From a virus (lineage: Duplodnaviria > Heunggongvirae > Uroviricota > Caudoviricetes), in IMG/VR virus record IMGVR_UViG_2909288124_000002: a DNA stretch of 35,851 bases; one strand, given 5' to 3'. Each line of letters starts with the position of its first letter. Within the stretch, counting starts at the first letter, position 1. Below are positions 2,028-34,283 of this stretch, piece by piece. The translations under genes and the position numbers were made by a program. The notes beneath the pieces are model-generated. The model searched no databases. It saw only the letters and a program-made list of their open reading frames with translations, and had not been told where the DNA came from.

Positions 2028-2031
2028 TGGC
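2028..2031. repeat. Left copy of putative 4-bp target site duplication TGGC flanking the IS3-family element
   Basis: TGGC at 2028-2031 and again at 3253-3256, immediately outside the TGACC...GGTCA termini. Confidence 0.6.
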
Positions 2032-2102
2032 TGACCTGCTCCCCGTTGATTAGTACACCCCGATGTTAGTAATGTCTTCATAAGCCACATGAGGACATCC
2101 CC

Positions 2103-2366
2103 ATGAAGAAGCGTTTTTCCGACGAACAGATCATCAGTATTCTCCGCGAAGCCGAAGCTGGGGTACCCGCCCGTGAACTCTGCCGCAAGCATGCCATTTC
2201 CGATGCCACGTTTTACACCTGGCGTAAGAAGTATGGCGGTATGGAGGTGCCTGAAGTTAAGCGCCTGAAGTCGCTTGAGGAAGAGAACACCAGACTCAAG
2301 AAGCTGCTTGCCGAAGCCATGCTGGATAAAGAGGCGCTTCAGGTGGCTCTTGGGCGAAAGTACTGA
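2103..2366 (+). CDS. IS3-family transposase OrfA (HTH, leucine-zipper region)
   Basis: 87-aa [49 protein letters not shown]... typical of IS3/IS407-group OrfA. Confidence 0.85.
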
Positions 2367-2389
2367 CGACAGACCAGAAGCGGGAAGCC

Positions 2390-3223
2390 GTGATGTTGAT
2401 GTGTGATGCGACCGGTCTGTCGCAACGTCGTGCCTGCAGGCTTACAGGTTTATCCCTGTCGACCTGCCGCTATGAGGCTCACCGTCCGGCTGCTGATGCG
2501 CATTTATCAGGGCGCATCACTGAGCTGGCACTGGAGCGCAGGCGTTTTGGCTACCGTCGTATTTGGCAGTTGCTGCGCCGTGAAGGGCTTCATGTTAATC
2601 ATAAGCGCGTGTACCGGCTTTATCACCTCAGTGGCCTGGGCGTAAAACGCAGAAGACGTCGTAAAGGGCTGGCAACAGAACGTCTGCCGCTGCTCCGTCC
2701 GGCGGCGCCCAATCTGACCTGGTCGATGGATTTCGTCATGGACGCACTTTCCACCGGTCGCAGGATCAAGTGTCTTACCTGCGTCGATGATTTCACAAAG
2801 GAATGCCTGACGGTCACTGTTGCCTTTGGGATTTCAGGCGTTCAGGTCACGCGTATTCTGGACAGCATTGCACTGTTTCGAGGCTATCCGGCGACGATAA
2901 GAACTGACCAGGGGCCGGAGTTCACTTGCCGTGCACTGGATCAATGGGCCTTTGAGCATGGTGTTGAGTTGCGCTTAATCCAGCCGGGCAAGCCAACGCA
3001 GAACGGATTTATTGAGAGCTTTAACGGACGATTTCGCGATGAATGTTTGAATGAGCACTGGTTCAGCGATATCGTTCATGCCAGGAAAATTATTAATGAC
3101 TGGCGGCAGGATTATAACGAATGCCGCCCGCACTCCACGCTGAATTATCAGACACCGTCTGAATTTGCAGCGGGCTGGAGAAAGGGTCATTCTGAGAATG
3201 AAGATTCCGACGTTACTAACTGA
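2390..3223 (+). CDS. IS3-family transposase OrfB (DDE integrase core); probably made as OrfAB fusion by -1 frameshift
   Basis: ORF (GTG-initiated in the ORF track) with DDE residues: ...WSMDFV..., ...IRTDQGPEF..., ...[13 protein letters not shown]...; frame is -1 relative to orfA. The slippery site was not located. Confidence 0.85.
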
Positions 3224-3249
3224 GTGTTGTATCTAATCGTGGGGGCAGG

Positions 3250-3816
3250 TCATGGCCATTCAATATCCTGTGCAGTTGACGTATCAACACGGTTCAGCAA
3301 TACCCGATACTTTTTCCATGCTTCCAGCAACGAGATTTCTTCCTCCGTTGCAATTTCCAGATCTGCAGCATCCTGAAGCGGCGCAATATGCTCACTGGCT
3401 ACCTGCATCAGGTTGTTTTTTGTTTCTTCCGCCTCCCGGATCCGGAACAGTTTTTCTGCTTCCGTATCCTTCACCCAGGCTGTGCCGTTCCACTTCTGAA
3501 ACTCCCCTTCCGGCGATAACCAGGTAACATTTTCCGGTAACGGACCGAGTTCAGAAATAAATAACGCGTCGCCGGAAGCCACGTCATAAACCGTTTTACC
3601 CCGATGATCTTCAACGAGATGCCACGATGACTCATCACTGTTGAAAACAGCCACGAAGCCAGCCGGAATATCTGGCGGTGCAATATCGGTACTGTTTGCT
3701 GGCAGACCTGTATGAGGCGGAATATATGCATCACCTTCACCAATAAATTCATTAGTTCCGGCCAGCAGATTATAAATTTTTATGGTCCGTGGTTGTTCAC
3801 TCATTCTGAATGCCAT
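3250..3816 (-). CDS. tfa: Tail fiber assembly protein Tfa (lambda Tfa-like), C-terminus truncated by the IS insertion
   Basis: 188-aa [42 protein letters not shown]... matches lambda Tfa; the stop codon TGA is supplied by the IS terminus (3250-3252). Confidence 0.88.
3253..3256. repeat. Right copy of putative 4-bp target site duplication TGGC
   Basis: See 2028-2031. Confidence 0.6.
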
Positions 3817-6951: not shown

Positions 6952-7551
6952 TCAGAACTTATAACCGACACCCACGATGAAACCGTCAGTGCGCCAGTCG
7001 CCACTGCCGGAGCCTTCATAAGCAATATCAATGGCCACGGATTCGGTCGGGTTAAACTGCACGCCAGCTCCCCACGCCAGAGACGTGTTGCTGTGGCGAC
7101 CGTCATCACTTCCGGTCAGCACGTCGTGCGTTTTCCCCTTGTTGTCAGTTACGCGGAGATAATCCCCGGAGAAAGTCGACACACGGCTGTAAGCCACACC
7201 CGCCATCGCATACGCGCTGAACCATTCATTCACGCGCACAGACGGCCCCGCCATTACGCTGAACCAGCGGTTACGAACGGAATCTTCATGCCAGCGGGTA
7301 TCGCTGTAACGGGTCAGCTGGCGATTCTTGTCTCCTGCATAGCTGAATGACGTCACCAGCCCCAGCGTATCCGTAAACTCATAACGGTATTTCACGTTAA
7401 TCCCGTTCAGATCATCACTGCCGGGAACGTTGGTCCGGGCATGAAGATACCCCGCGCTCAGCGTGGACTGATGTTCAGACGCCCATGCAGGCGCACCGGA
7501 TACGGCCAGACAAATGGCTGCGGACAAAATGGCTGCACAAACTTTACGCAT
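6952..7551 (-). CDS. lom: Lom outer membrane protein (Ail/Lom family)
   Basis: 199-aa ORF with signal peptide MRKVCAAILSAAICLAVSGAPAWA and beta-barrel-like C-terminus ending ...GVGYKF; sits between J and stf as in lambda. Confidence 0.9.
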   Translation of the reverse strand: MRKVCAAILSAAICLAVSGAPAWASEHQSTLSAGYLHARTNVPGSDDLNGINVKYRYEFTDTLGLVTSFSYAGDKNRQLTRYSDTRWHEDSVRNRWFSVMAGPSVRVNEWFSAYAMAGVAYSRVSTFSGDYLRVTDNKGKTHDVLTGSDDGRHSNTSLAWGAGVQFNPTESVAIDIAYEGSGSGDWRTDGFIVGVGYKF

Positions 7552-7621
7552 AATTACCTCTCGCTTTTCTGCAATAAAAAAGGCGTCATTCCTGACGCCA
7601 TTTATTGGGGTTATAAATATT

Positions 7622-10600
7622 TCAACGAATACTGATGCCTGAAGCCGCTTTTTTGGTCACAATCACCGTACAGTCGGTGATATTACCTGCCCGCTGATTG
7701 CCTTTATGGAAAACCTTAAACTCCAGAGTGACGCTTCCCCTGCCACTCGGCATATCAATAACCGCACTGTAGCTACCGGGAATGGCCCCTTTAGTTTCTC
7801 TGGATGCGATTAATACACCGTTTTTGCGAACTTCAAAACCATAACCCGTGTATCTTGTACCTCCCGGGTTATTACCACTTCCCGGATCGCTATACGCTAT
7901 TCCGTTAAAGATAATGGGCGGAATAATGATTTGACGGTCAAAGTTATGATCATCGCTGATGGTGACTGTAACCGTCCCGTTTGGTGTTTCCGTATTACCC
8001 CACGTACCAGCCTGTTTCGGGAATGATTTGGATACAGCTTTAACGAAGTCACCTCTGACCTGAGTCGCCTCCAGCATGCCCTTAATCGTACAGTTTTCAT
8101 TTACCGTGACATTGTTGAGCGTCCCGGCGTTCGCATTCACACTGCCACTGATATCCGCATTTTTAGCGGTCAGCTTTCCGTCTGATGTCAGGGAAAATGC
8201 CGGTGGATTTCCACCGCTGGTAATGGTCGGGGCCGTCAGGCGCTTCAGGAACACGTCGTTCATAAATATCTGATTGCCCTGCGCCACAAACATCGGCGTT
8301 TCATTCCCGTTTGCCGGTTCAATAAACGCGATACGGTTAGCGGCAACCAGAAACTGGCTCAGCTTACCTTCTTCCGTGTCCTCCATGCTGAGGCCAATAC
8401 CCGCGACATAATGTTTGCCGTCTTTGGTCTGCTCAATTTTGACGCCCCACATGGCATTCCACTTATCGTTAGCGTCCTGCCACTCTTTCGAAAACTCCTC
8501 CAGTCTGCTGGCGTTATCCTCCGTCAGCTCGACTTTTTCCAGCAGCTCCTTGCCGAGATGGGATTCGGTTATCTGGCCTTTGAAAAAATCCAGGTAACCT
8601 TCCGCATCATCGCTCGCCTGACCGACAGCCTCCACGAATGCCGATTTGCCAACGGTGTTCACACTGCGGATATAAAAGTAATAATCATGGCCCGGTTTGA
8701 TATTGATACTGGCGGCTATCCAGTACAGCGCCGTACCAAGATAGCGGGCTGTGGTTTCAACCTGCCTGATATCGGTAATCCGCGTTTCCGAGAACCAGAA
8801 CTCAAACTGTACCGTCGGATCATAAACCGCAAGATGCGGCGTGGCAGTTATCTGAAAATAGCCCGGCGTCAGCTCAATCCGCGACGGCGCTGCCGGGGCG
8901 GCAATCCGGAACGATACCGACGCCGGATCGCCCTGCTGTCCCCGGGCATTTACCGCCCGGACCGTCAGCATGTAACGCCCCAGCGCCAGTTGCGTGAAGC
9001 GGTATGTGGTTTCCGTCGTCCGGGCCGTGCTGACCAGCCGCTCACTGCCGTCATCCGCTGCCACGGTCAGGCGAAGCAGGAAGCTCACGCCCTTCACCAC
9101 CTTCGGCGTGTCCCAGCGGGCCAGCACCTGATATTCCCCACTGTCTGCGGTGACTTCGGCAGTCAGGTGCTGCACCGCTGGCGGCGTGACACCATTCACC
9201 GTGCCGCTCTGGTCGCCGTCAAAGTGCGCCCCGTTATCCACGATGGCCTCTTTCTCCGGTACATGCTGCACGGCAGTGATGGCATACGTGCCGTCATCGT
9301 TCTCACGGATACTCACGCAGCGGAACAGGCGCTGGCGCAACGTCGGCAGCTTCAGCCCCCATATGCTGTATCCGGCAACGCCGTCAGGAACACGGCTCAC
9401 TTTTACCTTCACGCCGTCGGTGACGGACTGGACCTCCACGCTGACCGGATTGCCTCTTCCGTCAACCAGGCTTATCAGCGTGGTACCGGAGGATGGCAGC
9501 GTGATTTCACGGTCGAGCGTCAGCGTCCGGGTCTGGCTGTTCACCGCCAGCACGCGACCACCGGTGCTGATACCGGCATAGTCATCATCGCAGATTTCAA
9601 TGACATCGCCCGGTACATGGCGAAGCCCTTCAGCACCCACGCTGAAATCCACGGTCTGCGTCTCCAGCAGTTCCGTTTTAATCAGCCACAGCCCGGCGCG
9701 GTGTGCCTGCCCCCGGCTGGTACAGCCAAAGGCATCCATCTTCGTGACATTACGACCGTAACGGGCAATGGCCTGCGTATCTTCAACAAGCTCTGTCGCC
9801 GTCTCCCAGCCGTTGTTCGGGTCAATCCAGTTCACCTCAACGGCATTATGGCGGTCCTTCAGGGCGCTGAAGCTGTAGCGGAACGGCGCGCCATCATCCG
9901 GCATCACCACATTACTGCGGTTATAGGTCCACACCTTATCTGATGGTCGGTCCTGCACGAACGTCAGCGTCTGCCCGTTCCATACCGGCATACAGCGCAT
10001 CGCCGAGCAGAAATCACTGAGCACATCCCACGCCTTACGCTGCGTGGTCAGCCAGGCATTACAGGTGATGCGCGGCTCCGTGCCGCCAAAGCCGTCCGGC
10101 ACTGACTGGTCGCAGTACTGGCCGATGACATACAGCGCCCATTTATCCACATCCGCCGCACCAAGACGTTTCCCCATGCCGTAGCGCGGGTGGGTCAGCA
10201 TATCCCACAGACACCAGGCCGGGTTGTTGCTGTATGCCGGCTTAAACGTTCCGTCCCAGATACCGCTGTATTGCCGCGTCTGCGGGTTATAGTTCGACGG
10301 CACCTGCAGAATGCGCCCGCGAAGATGATAATTACGGCTCACCTGCTGGCTGCCGAACTGCTCCGAGTCCACCTGCACGCCGACCAGTGCCGTGTTCGGG
10401 TAGCACTTTTCACATCGATGATTTCGGTGTATGACGACCAGAGCGTTTTGTTCTGCAGCTGGTCTGTGGTGCTGTCCGGCGTCATCCTGCGCATCCGGAT
10501 ATTAAACGGGCGCGGCGGCAGGCTACCCACCACCACCGAGGCCAGATACTGCGAGGTGGTTTTGCCCTTAATGGTGATGTCTTTTTCCGTCACCCAGCCA

Positions 10601-11034
10601 CCGTTACGTTGTATCTGAACCAGCAGACGGACTTCCGACGGATTCCTGTCACCCTTTGAGGTGGTTTCCACCAGTGCCTGTACACCGAAGGTAAAGCGCA
10701 GACGGTCGATGTTTGCAGACGTAATGGTGCGGGTGATCGGCGTGTCATATTTCACTTCCGTACCCAGCACCGTCTCGGAGCCGGAGGATTCAAACCCCTC
10801 CGGCGGTGTCTGCTCCTGCTCACCGGCACGGAACACCACCGTGACACCGGAGATGTTGGTATTCCCCTCAGTGTCCAGCACCGGCGTACTGTTCAGCAGC
10901 ACGCTTTTTAATCCATCCACCGGACCTTCAACCGGCCCTTCGCTGATGGCATCGATCACACTCAGCAACTGCGTGGACTTCAGGTTGTCCTTCGCTTCGC
11001 GCGGGGTATGCCCCTTACTGCTTCCTTTACCCAT
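7622..11034 (-). pseudogene. J: Tail tip / host specificity protein J, interrupted by a frameshift near 10405-10412
   Basis: Two consecutive ORFs in different frames both match lambda J: 10339..11034 (MGKGSSKGHTPREAKDNLKSTQLLSVIDAISEGP...) and 7622..10378 ([27 protein letters not shown]...). The N-terminal frame ends ...[14 protein letters not shown] where lambda J continues ...[23 protein letters not shown]. Confidence 0.8.
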
Positions 11035-29008: not shown

Positions 29009-30032
<1,024 letters not shown>

Positions 30033-30036
<4 letters not shown>

Positions 30037-30344
30037 AGATATTTATGATGAGGACGCTCGTGCTTATTGGCAGGATTTTCAATCTTAAAGGAGTATTGAT
30101 GCTGCAGATAAGACTCAACTTTTTCTGACAATTTTTCTGCTACTTCCAGGAAGACTTGCCGGACGCTCCTTCTGGCTGCTGCCTCATAAAACTCCAGCGC
30201 AGCTCCTTCAACACGGTCCATGGCGACATCCAGGTCAAAAATTTCACCGTCAAAGCGTTCTTTGTCCTGTAAGGCTACAGTTACCGTAACTTTATTCTCA
30301 AAATTACGGACTCCTTTCACAACCAGTTCATAGTCTTGAGTCAT
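30033..30344 (-). CDS. ydfR: YdfR (DUF1327) lysis-cassette-associated protein (103 aa)
   Basis: ORF MTQDYELVVKGVRNFENKVTVTVALQDKERFDGEIFDLDVAMD...; located between holin and endolysin. Confidence 0.8.
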
Positions 30345-30348
30345 TGGA

Positions 30349-30564
30349 TTACTCTCCTCTCGCAGCCTTACGCCTGTCTTCTTTAATCTTGAAATAAAGA
30401 TTTGTCAGATACGTCAGCAGGCCAAAAACCAGGCTACCCAGCACACCGATTGCAGCCCACTGTGACGGAGTTACTTTATCGAGTAACTGCAATGCCCAGA
30501 AACCAGCATTACCCGCCGATGTGCCATAGGCAACACCTGTTGTTAACTTATCCATTGATTTCAT
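30349..30564 (-). CDS. essQ: Pinholin, phage 21 S-type class II holin (71 aa, dual-start MKSMDK)
   Basis: From [71 protein letters not shown]; two TMDs; GAGGA Shine-Dalgarno before the ATG at 30564. The ORF track extends to 30639. Confidence 0.85.
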
Positions 30565-30783
30565 ATCCTCACCCCGATGTACACGGATGGTGCAATATGT
30601 TTGAAAAGATCGGAGTCTACGGGGTAGTTTTGACAGCACACGTTGTTCTCAACGGCGCTAAAAAAACATACACATTAAAAATGTGGGTAATTATTTTGAA
30701 AGAAAGTCATATATAAAATAATAATACGAGAAATGTTTTCATATTTAGTGTACTGTATACGGCCATTTATACAGGAAAAGCCT

Positions 30784-32467: not shown

Positions 32468-33220
32468 TTATCTCGTCACCTTCCTCAATTGCGCTTCCGC
32501 GTATGCTTCTTCCTGCCAGCACTTTGTTACCAGTTTACCAATGACGTCCGCATACCCCTTATACCACTGATAATCGGTCAGGTCTGGTACCAGCTTCTGG
32601 ACATGACGTCGTGCCAGCGTGGTCGGTAAACGACTAAACCGGTTTCCATTACAACGCCCACAAATCTTATATACCGGTACGCCATGAAACCGGGTTCTTT
32701 TTTCATCCAGAACAATCCCTTTACCCTTACACCCTCTGCACGCTGTGCTGGCTTCGCCCTTACCATGGCAATGCTGACATAGTTCCTTCACCCATTCTTC
32801 CTTGATTACAGATTCCCCGCGTCTGTAGTGTTTCACCACTTCGCGCAATACATTATAAAATCCCGTACCTGAACAATGCTCACAGCGAGCCTTACTTGCC
32901 GCAGACCTGGAGTAATCAGCAAAGGCAAAACTCACGAGGTAAGGAATAATCTGTAACCGGATTTCTTCACTCAATTTGTTCAATGTCGGGTTATCCAGTG
33001 CCATCGCGTAATTTAGCAGGCCTTCAATCGCAAACTGAGGGTCCTGAACACCAACTTTTGCCAGAAATAAGGCCAACCCAAGTGGTGCTTTCGACTGCAC
33101 CATCCCCTGCGCTGCCATTACATCCGTAATTGTTAAACAACCGGTGCCTGTCGCTGGAGCGTCATCGCTCAATTTTGGAGATTTTGGGGAGTAATATTTT
33201 GGTAAGGCTTCAAGGTTCAT
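32468..33220 (-). CDS. quuQ: Late gene antiterminator Q (phage 21/82-type, 250 aa)
   Basis: From MNLEALPKYYSPKSPKLSDDAP...; Cys-rich zinc-binding region CEHCSGTG...CQHCHGKGEASTACRGCKGKG...CGRCNGN. The ORF track begins 10 codons upstream. Confidence 0.85.
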   Translation of the reverse strand: MNLEALPKYYSPKSPKLSDDAPATGTGCLTITDVMAAQGMVQSKAPLGLALFLAKVGVQDPQFAIEGLLNYAMALDNPTLNKLSEEIRLQIIPYLVSFAFADYSRSAASKARCEHCSGTGFYNVLREVVKHYRRGESVIKEEWVKELCQHCHGKGEASTACRGCKGKGIVLDEKRTRFHGVPVYKICGRCNGNRFSRLPTTLARRHVQKLVPDLTDYQWYKGYADVIGKLVTKCWQEEAYAEAQLRKVTR

Positions 33221-33233
33221 GCTCGTTCTCCAC

Positions 33234-34283
33234 TTACACCAGTACGCCAATTGCCAGCGCGCGATCGATAAAACGAAATATCAGCTCCAGTTGGGAGCCA
33301 TACTTATCTTCAAATGCCACTGTATCCGTATGCAGCTCGTTGTGATGCTTTCTGCACAAAGGCAACACAAAGAGATCATGTGCTTTTGTTCCCATTCCGC
33401 CCTGCCCGTGACCAATCAGATGATGCGGATCGTCGGCTGGCATACCGCAGCAAGCACACGGCTGTGTCTTAACCCAACGTGTGTATTTCTCCTTAACCCA
33501 GCGGCGACGTTTAGGCAGCTTCATGAAAGATTCCGGAGACTCTGGATCAACGGTGATGCTTACCACCGTCTTTTCCTGTGGTGATTTTTGTTGCTGGTGG
33601 GCGTAAGGCAACGGTGCAAGATTTTTTGTGCGTTGTTTCAATATGCTGGTGGCGGTCTGCTCTCCCGGTACGATGTCGCTTTCGCGGTACACCGAGCAGA
33701 TTTTTTCCGCTGGTAATCCCAGCGAACGACGCGATACAGCCTCAGGTAGTGCATCCACCACCTGATTGCAGACCGCCCACCAGGATAATTCAGCCAAAGA
33801 TAATTCCCGCTCCTGCGTACCGCTTATTGCGTGACGGATGACGTCAATCACCCATGCTGTCAGATTTTGTTGAGCAAGCAGCTCCAGTGATTCCGATGTC
33901 TGGTCACGCAGTTGGTTGTCGCAGTGCCAGCACAACACCATTGCGCCGGTACCATAACGGTGAATGACTGTTTCAGTGTGATGGTAATCGCCATTAGGCC
34001 ACTGGCAGGATGTAACATGACGTAATAGCCAGTCGGACAATGCGCCAACGCCGCCAGCAGCACGAATCACCCGTTCGTTACTAAAAAACGGCAGCAATGT
34101 TTTGTCTTCCGCCAGCGGCTGGCGAACGGCAGGAACGACTCCGGATGGCAGATTACGCATGCTTTTTGGTTCCGGTTCCACCAGCACTCGAGGATTATGA
34201 AATATCTGTATGGATTCACGGCCCGGCTTAAGGACCACCAGCCCAAGCTCAGGCACCAGAACAGGTCTAAGTAATACCCGCAC
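33234..34283 (-). CDS. ydfU: YdfU-like DUF968 protein with C-terminal HNH-like zinc-finger motif
   Basis: ORF ...CACCGMPADDPHHLIGHGQGGMGTKAHDLFVLPLCRKHHNELH... Start uncertain: GTG at 34283 directly follows the upstream ORF stop (TAA-C-GTG); the ORF track extends to 34322. Confidence 0.75.
   Translation of the reverse strand: MRVLLRPVLVPELGLVVLKPGRESIQIFHNPRVLVEPEPKSMRNLPSGVVPAVRQPLAEDKTLLPFFSNERVIRAAGGVGALSDWLLRHVTSCQWPNGDYHHTETVIHRYGTGAMVLCWHCDNQLRDQTSESLELLAQQNLTAWVIDVIRHAISGTQERELSLAELSWWAVCNQVVDALPEAVSRRSLGLPAEKICSVYRESDIVPGEQTATSILKQRTKNLAPLPYAHQQQKSPQEKTVVSITVDPESPESFMKLPKRRRWVKEKYTRWVKTQPCACCGMPADDPHHLIGHGQGGMGTKAHDLFVLPLCRKHHNELHTDTVAFEDKYGSQLELIFRFIDRALAIGVLV

Follow-up and report, generated by a model that had tools for sequence, protein, structure and literature searches.

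The window analysed here, a 35,851-nt stretch of lambdoid phage DNA, contains on its minus strand a homologue of J, the tail tip attachment and host specificity gene. The original prediction held that the receptor-binding end of this J had been swapped for one that recognizes a different host receptor. The locus thus raises the questions of which class of receptor-binding domain J encodes, which outer-membrane protein the domain would recognize and whether the protein can be made. We conclude that the 3′ end of J (~8105-7622, minus strand) very probably encodes an Ig-like receptor-binding domain of the h434 class, a probable OmpC-binding tip, within a mosaic and frameshifted J of a decaying prophage at the Qin site.

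Prophage context and architecture of J

The whole window (positions 1-35851) is a lambdoid E. coli prophage at the Qin site with a complete head and tail gene block. Its left end contains ydfK (1-234), an IS1 (546-1317) and the adjoining pin gene (1304-1918). An IS3-family element (~2031-3253; orfA, 2103-2366; orfB, 2390-3223) is located between pin and tfa. E. coli strain 873.10 lacks the stretch 2031-3253, and a Pin-invertible tail-fibre segment was suspected there for that reason; the segment proved to be the IS3-family element, and no inverted repeats were found. The tfa gene (3816-3250, minus strand) lies downstream of the side tail fibre gene stf (6893-3816, minus strand; 1025 aa). Tail genes I through V, the head genes and terminase follow tfa, stf, lom and J, up to ~26345. 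Morons of the ydfO/gnsB/cspI type lie between terminase (~26345) and the lysis genes (29009-30640). The right end contains cspB/cspF, a Q-like gene (32468-33250), a DUF968-like gene, hokD, relE and relB.

The prophage shares its chromosomal neighbourhood with the cryptic prophage Qin of K-12, and the two have in common ydfK, pinQ, tfaQ, stfQ, nohA, the lysis genes, cspB/cspF/cspI, a Q-like gene, hokD and relBE. The K-12 Qin remnant is not known to carry head and tail genes, whereas the prophage in the window keeps the whole morphogenetic block from Nu1 to tfa. Judged by lambda, every morphogenetic ORF except J has the expected length. Visible breakage among the structural genes is confined to J, which, together with the IS insertions, fits a decaying prophage.

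J occupies 7622..11034 on the minus strand. According to the order of ORFs and the annotations of the 873.10 prophage, it is placed after the tail genes M-L-K-I and before lom-stf-tfa, which is the gene order of TipJ/gpJ. A TipJ/gpJ gene is expected to have one uninterrupted frame of ~1130-1140 codons, but J in the window has 3413 nt, compared with 3414 nt in its relatives, and is split by a frameshift into ORFs of 231 and 918 aa. The N-terminal fragment (10339..11034, minus strand; 231 aa) matches Pfam FNIII-A_GpJ with an E-value of 7.7e-42, and its final ~22 residues are out of frame. The remaining frame (7622..10378, minus strand) runs for 918 codons from an internal GTG and is a mechanical ORF without a proper start. 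Taken together, the two ORFs match six Pfam families (FNIII-A_GpJ, Phage-tail_3, Ig_J, Ig_J_second, Phage_Tail_Tip and Ig_GpJ_C), all above the curated cut-offs. They reproduce the gpJ architecture of an FNIII-A domain, a hub (Phage-tail_3), two Ig/FNIII domains, a tail-tip fibre and a C-terminal Ig-like receptor-binding domain.

Whole J was compared by megablast with 50,697 phage records. Full-length matches at 95-97.5% identity were found in IdasGreatGrand, PhiR49_1, 2B8 and 434 (OL657226), in each of which the gene has 3414 nt, and also in lambda h434 imm21 (OM418627) and mEp460. Lambda-like and 434-like sites are interspersed through the conserved body of J, a mosaic of the kind that recombination among lambdoid phages typically produces.

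The 3′ end of J departs abruptly from lambda J

Frame-repaired J was aligned with J of lambda (J02459, 15505-18903). At the protein level, 45-50 of the 50 residues in each bin were identical up to residue ~950 (92-100% is also given for these bins), and identity then fell to 37/50, 21/50, 15/50 and 13/43 in the successive bins. Nucleotide identity in 150-nt bins stayed at 0.91-0.99 as far as J nt 2850 and then dropped to 0.80, 0.52, 0.41 and 0.50 in the four final bins, with several indels. Bins of 30 nt placed the beginning of the fall at J nt ~2930, that is window ~8105 or codon ~978, and the blastn match to lambda stops at window 8066. The break in identity is far too abrupt for chance.

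Window 7622-8150 (minus strand), where the divergent segment had been predicted, covers the final 176 codons of J, and the peptides quoted for it occur there letter for letter. The actual breakpoint lies 50-80 nt inside the predicted start at 8150. The claim that the final ~150 residues differ from the lambda domain was borne out: the last 152 aa are 36.3% identical to lambda J (tblastn, E 2e-16), so that high identity in a real alignment, named beforehand as the finding that would speak against the claim, did not appear. The accompanying statement that J is close to lambda over most of its length is right for residues up to ~950, but not for the gene as one intact ORF, since 1 nt is deleted at 10408. 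A J of the LamB-binding class would be expected to be nearly identical to lambda J over residues ~980-1132. The J studied here is outside this class, with the 36.3% amino acid identity given above and 41-52% nucleotide identity.

Fold of the divergent domain

The end of J matches Pfam PF12421 (Ig_GpJ_C), described as 'Tip attachment protein J, C-terminal receptor binding domain', with an E-value of 1e-25 over residues 782-917 of the 918-aa ORF. Searched against PDB sequences, the last 152 aa matched A8 gpJ 713 (9wca/9wcb; 5.6e-27) and lambda gpJ (8xcj/8xck; 3.8e-20). A homologue search with the 162-aa tip gave almost only fragments of the same class, and the AlphaFold2 model was consequently built on a shallow alignment of 10 sequences. 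This monomer model is all-beta, with a mean pLDDT of 74.7, a pTM of 0.75 and two low-confidence stretches. Foldseek against the PDB returned 8xck, 8xcj, 9wca and 9wcb at E ~1e-13 with TMq 0.73-0.75, and the next match had an E-value of 9e-5. Entries 8xck and 8xcj are the lambda central fibre in its closed and LamB-bound forms; 9wca and 9wcb are A8 gpJ, closed and bound to OmpC of EDL933.

The tip of J has the same Ig_GpJ_C family, the same predicted Ig-like fold (TMq ~0.74 to 8xck/8xcj) and the same place at the tip of the trimeric fibre as lambda gpJ. The N- and C-terminal strands are conserved between the two (NCTI.G, DDH.FDRQ, DMP.GRG and KK...GIS). The differences are an identity of 36-38%, insertions of 2 and 6 residues and a 6-residue deletion relative to lambda, and the receptor of lambda, which is LamB. 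What had been called a swapped module is thus indeed of another allelic class than lambda's, but it is an allelic variant of lambda's Ig-like domain, a divergent homologue with the same predicted fold rather than an unrelated module.

The closest solved structure by sequence is the A8 gpJ chimera (E 5.6e-27; 44% identity), which carries a natural, non-lambda tip targeting OmpC (9WCA; 9WCB with OmpC of E. coli EDL933; Brodel et al. Nature 2024, PMC11338833) and matches the fold at TMq 0.73-0.75. At 44% identity in the Foldseek alignment, A8 represents a third allelic class and not that of 434, and the tip of J lacks the near-identity to A8 that would place it there.

The domain belongs to the 434 class

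The divergent domain (Ig_GpJ_C; 7622..8105, minus strand; ~158 codons plus stop) is of the 434, or h434, class. Over the last 162 aa, 154 residues (95%) are identical to J of 434, and the indels relative to lambda are the same. The eight substitutions relative to 434 J, in the numbering of the 162-aa segment, are V3I, E5Q, S29A, Q33K, A34V, N44D, S74D and R124G. With the frame of the window copy repaired, both proteins have 1137 aa (434 central tail fiber, UMO75286.1), and the whole genes are 95.5% identical in DNA. Apart from the eight substitutions in the receptor-binding segment, the window copy differs from 434 J in having a different mosaic of lambda-like and 434-like sites in its body and a frameshift at codon 210.

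Other phages are closer still. Within the last 162 aa, one or two residues separate the tip from IdasGreatGrand and PhiR49_1. In a tblastn search with the final 152 residues, phi458 gave 100% identity and several Stx1a and Stx2c phages gave 99.3%. Identities to the tip are bimodal among phage records, with 74 at 90% or more and 168 below 60% (tblastn), indicating separate allelic classes and no continuum.

Genetic work has recognized the h434 host-range allele since the 1970s. The end of J is this classical allele, a common natural variant that is already characterized and widespread. The observation behind the original prediction is correct and its inference right in direction, and the feature itself is ordinary and already known.

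A block of about 1 kb differs from lambda

Similarity to lambda is lost at window ~8066 and regained only at ~7079, inside lom, from where it continues at 87% (blastn). In contrast, similarity to 434 is unbroken at 93.7% from window 8400 to 6466. The non-lambda block of ~1 kb thus comprises the receptor-binding domain of J, a spacer with a terminator and about two thirds of lom. An intrinsic terminator-like hairpin, GGCGTCA-GGAA-TGACGCC followed by TTTTTT (7575..7599, minus strand; hairpin 7599-7582), is located just past the J stop, and 434 has an annotated terminator at the corresponding position. The lom gene (6952..7551, minus strand) encodes a 199-aa outer-membrane protein of the Ail/Lom family (Pfam Ail_Lom, E 2.5e-122), and its 5′ two thirds lie within the same 434-like block as the J tip. 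The window and 434 have the same downstream terminator and lom type, and the similarity between them carries on without a break into stf. The J tip and the type of lom appear to travel together, the whole block being continuous with 434.

Such a block is the pattern expected of homologous recombination among lambdoid phages in conserved flanks, by which an h434-class tip may have been joined to ~980 lambda/434-like codons in a mosaic J. Rapid point mutation of a lambda-type domain in place, under selection and with no exchange of alleles, could be considered instead, as a few C-terminal point mutations are known to alter the receptor use of lambda J, according to work cited in PMC11101478. Such mutation would have to produce 41-52% nucleotide identity and multiple indels directly beside DNA that is 92-99% identical, with a boundary sharp within ~60 nt, and the resulting block, reaching into lom, is common to 434 and dozens of phages at 93-100%. 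We regard divergence in place as extremely improbable and allele exchange as the probable origin of the block.

OmpC is the probable receptor

Statements in PMC11101478 (Ge et al. 2024) and PMC3509688, made there with reference to Fuerst & Bingham 1978, indicate that a phage in which lambda J is replaced by the 434 tail fibre gene binds OmpC, the receptor of 434. The same two papers, citing Wang, Hofnung & Charbit 2000, attribute host specificity to the C-terminal part of gpJ. Lambda has also been retargeted to OmpC by grafting natural gpJ C-termini onto it (PMC11338833).

The J of lambda h434 imm21 (L009, OM418627; PMC9119081) is lambda-like to nt ~2100-2170 and of 434 type thereafter. The changeover from lambda to 434 in this hybrid lies ~1250 nt from the 3′ end of J, so its 434-derived part is the 3′ third of the gene, including the receptor-binding domain. 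The differences between lambda and 434 in this third fall mostly within the last ~500 nt.

In an intact phage, the tip of the central fibre would carry the domain in three copies, and their binding to an outer-membrane porin would trigger opening of the tail. Porin binding and tail opening have been shown structurally for lambda gpJ with LamB (8XCJ) and for A8 gpJ with OmpC (9WCB). Judging from the 95% identity to 434 J, the tip studied here, if expressed in an intact J, would most probably bind OmpC. The predicted change of receptor therefore gains support from membership of the 434 class, as the receptor given for 434 and for lambda with the 434 J gene is OmpC and not LamB (PMC11101478, PMC3509688), with the assignment to this particular J made by its identity to 434 J.

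The 434-class domain might have a receptor other than OmpC of the K-12 type, either another spectrum of OmpC alleles or another porin. Several of the eight substituted positions are in predicted loops of the AlphaFold2 model, and the substitutions could shift the preference for OmpC alleles. Closely related gpJ tips can differ in the OmpC alleles they accept (Nature 2024, PMC11338833), and the gpJ chimeras A8 and 1A2 do accept different OmpC variants (PMC11338833). On the other hand, the tip is 95% identical to 434 J and no data point to another receptor. Furthermore, phi458, with its identical last 152 residues, lists K-12 strain MC1061 as host, and K-12 MG1655 is the listed host of PhiR26_1, a phage with 96.9% DNA identity across the entire J gene. 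A different receptor is thus unlikely, and OmpC remains our preferred assignment.

The literature search for receptor data returned no paper on IdasGreatGrand, and the abstracts listed for PhiR49, mEp460 and phi458 make no mention of receptor work. The sequences of A8 and 1A2, sought as a test of whether 1A2 is of the 434 class, are absent from the supplements of PMC11338833.

J is frameshifted at codon 210

The frameshift is a 1-nt deletion at 10407..10409 (window 10408; minus strand), where a coding-strand C is absent at J nt 628, in codon 210. Aligned with lambda, 434, IdasGreatGrand, PhiR49_1 and strain 873.10, the site reads GTGAAA-AGTG in place of GTGAAACAGTG. The absent C stands between AAA and AG, outside any homopolymer run. 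Every relative examined has a J of 3414 nt with the base present.

An error of sequencing or assembly, with J intact in the real strain, would account for the private nature of the deletion. None of 5426 complete E. coli genomes matched a 68-nt probe across it exactly, the best matches being 69 nt with one gap. The nearest complete genome, that of E. coli O18ac:H14 strain 873.10, shares 99.96% identity with window 3253-31123 (27.9 kb), from which it differs by 9 substitutions and 2 single-base indels, and has an intact J of 3414 nt. However, an identical truncated product of 231 aa is encoded on the Logan read-based contig ERR14841952_165, which is contained in the window without any difference along 6696 nt, and the protein collection lists this product under both NCBI and Logan. 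The position of the C between AAA and AG also speaks against an error in homopolymer length, and the IS1 and the IS3-family insertion are other signs of decay in the prophage. An error is accordingly improbable, and we hold with considerable confidence that the frameshift is real and private to one lineage.

The sole other indel in the shared 27.9 kb is at window 27552, where an additional A, compared with 873.10, lengthens an A-run in the intergenic space that separates the ydfO-like gene from the gnsB-like gene.

Rescue of J by programmed frameshifting was considered and is unlikely. It would need a −1 shift, GUG AAA AGU is not a slippery heptamer of the form X XXY YYZ, and all relatives examined have the base.

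As J is frameshifted at codon 210, production of the receptor-binding protein is unlikely. Full-length J is not expected, and the domain would thus be a silent relic in the decaying Qin-site prophage. The silent tip could still pass to an incoming lambdoid phage by recombination. For annotation, J of this prophage is to be labelled as of the 434/OmpC class instead of the LamB class and flagged as a frameshifted pseudogene.

Distribution of the 434-type tip

The 459-nt divergent stretch of J was found in 2110 of the 5426 complete E. coli genomes, and the equivalent stretch of lambda in 98, all at 99% identity or more. Lambda is thus the unusual allele, its own tip being rare in natural E. coli, and the 434-type tip is about 20 times commoner in complete genomes of the species. 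Five records with the lambda-type tip among the matches listed are from laboratory strains, namely K-12, B, C41/C43(DE3) and BL21(DE3). The h434 allele has already been sequenced and is common across E. coli prophages; for related OmpC-binding gpJ tips there are solved structures, and such tips have found use in engineering.

The 2110 genomes with the 434-type tip fall into sub-groups at 99% identity or more, 95-99% and 90-95%. It is conceivable, at a rather low probability, that the sub-variant carried by phi458, PhiR49_1 and many Stx phages recognizes a set of OmpC alleles, or a porin, unlike that of 434. Silent copies at the Qin site could then form a reservoir of host range for infecting lambdoid phages, accessible by recombination.

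In other E. coli and Shigella genomes, the proteins P0051, P0057 and P0008 combine Lom, Stf or an unrelated N-terminus with the last ~50-60 residues of the tip. These fusions suggest that, in other prophages, deletions or rearrangements have had an endpoint within the tip.
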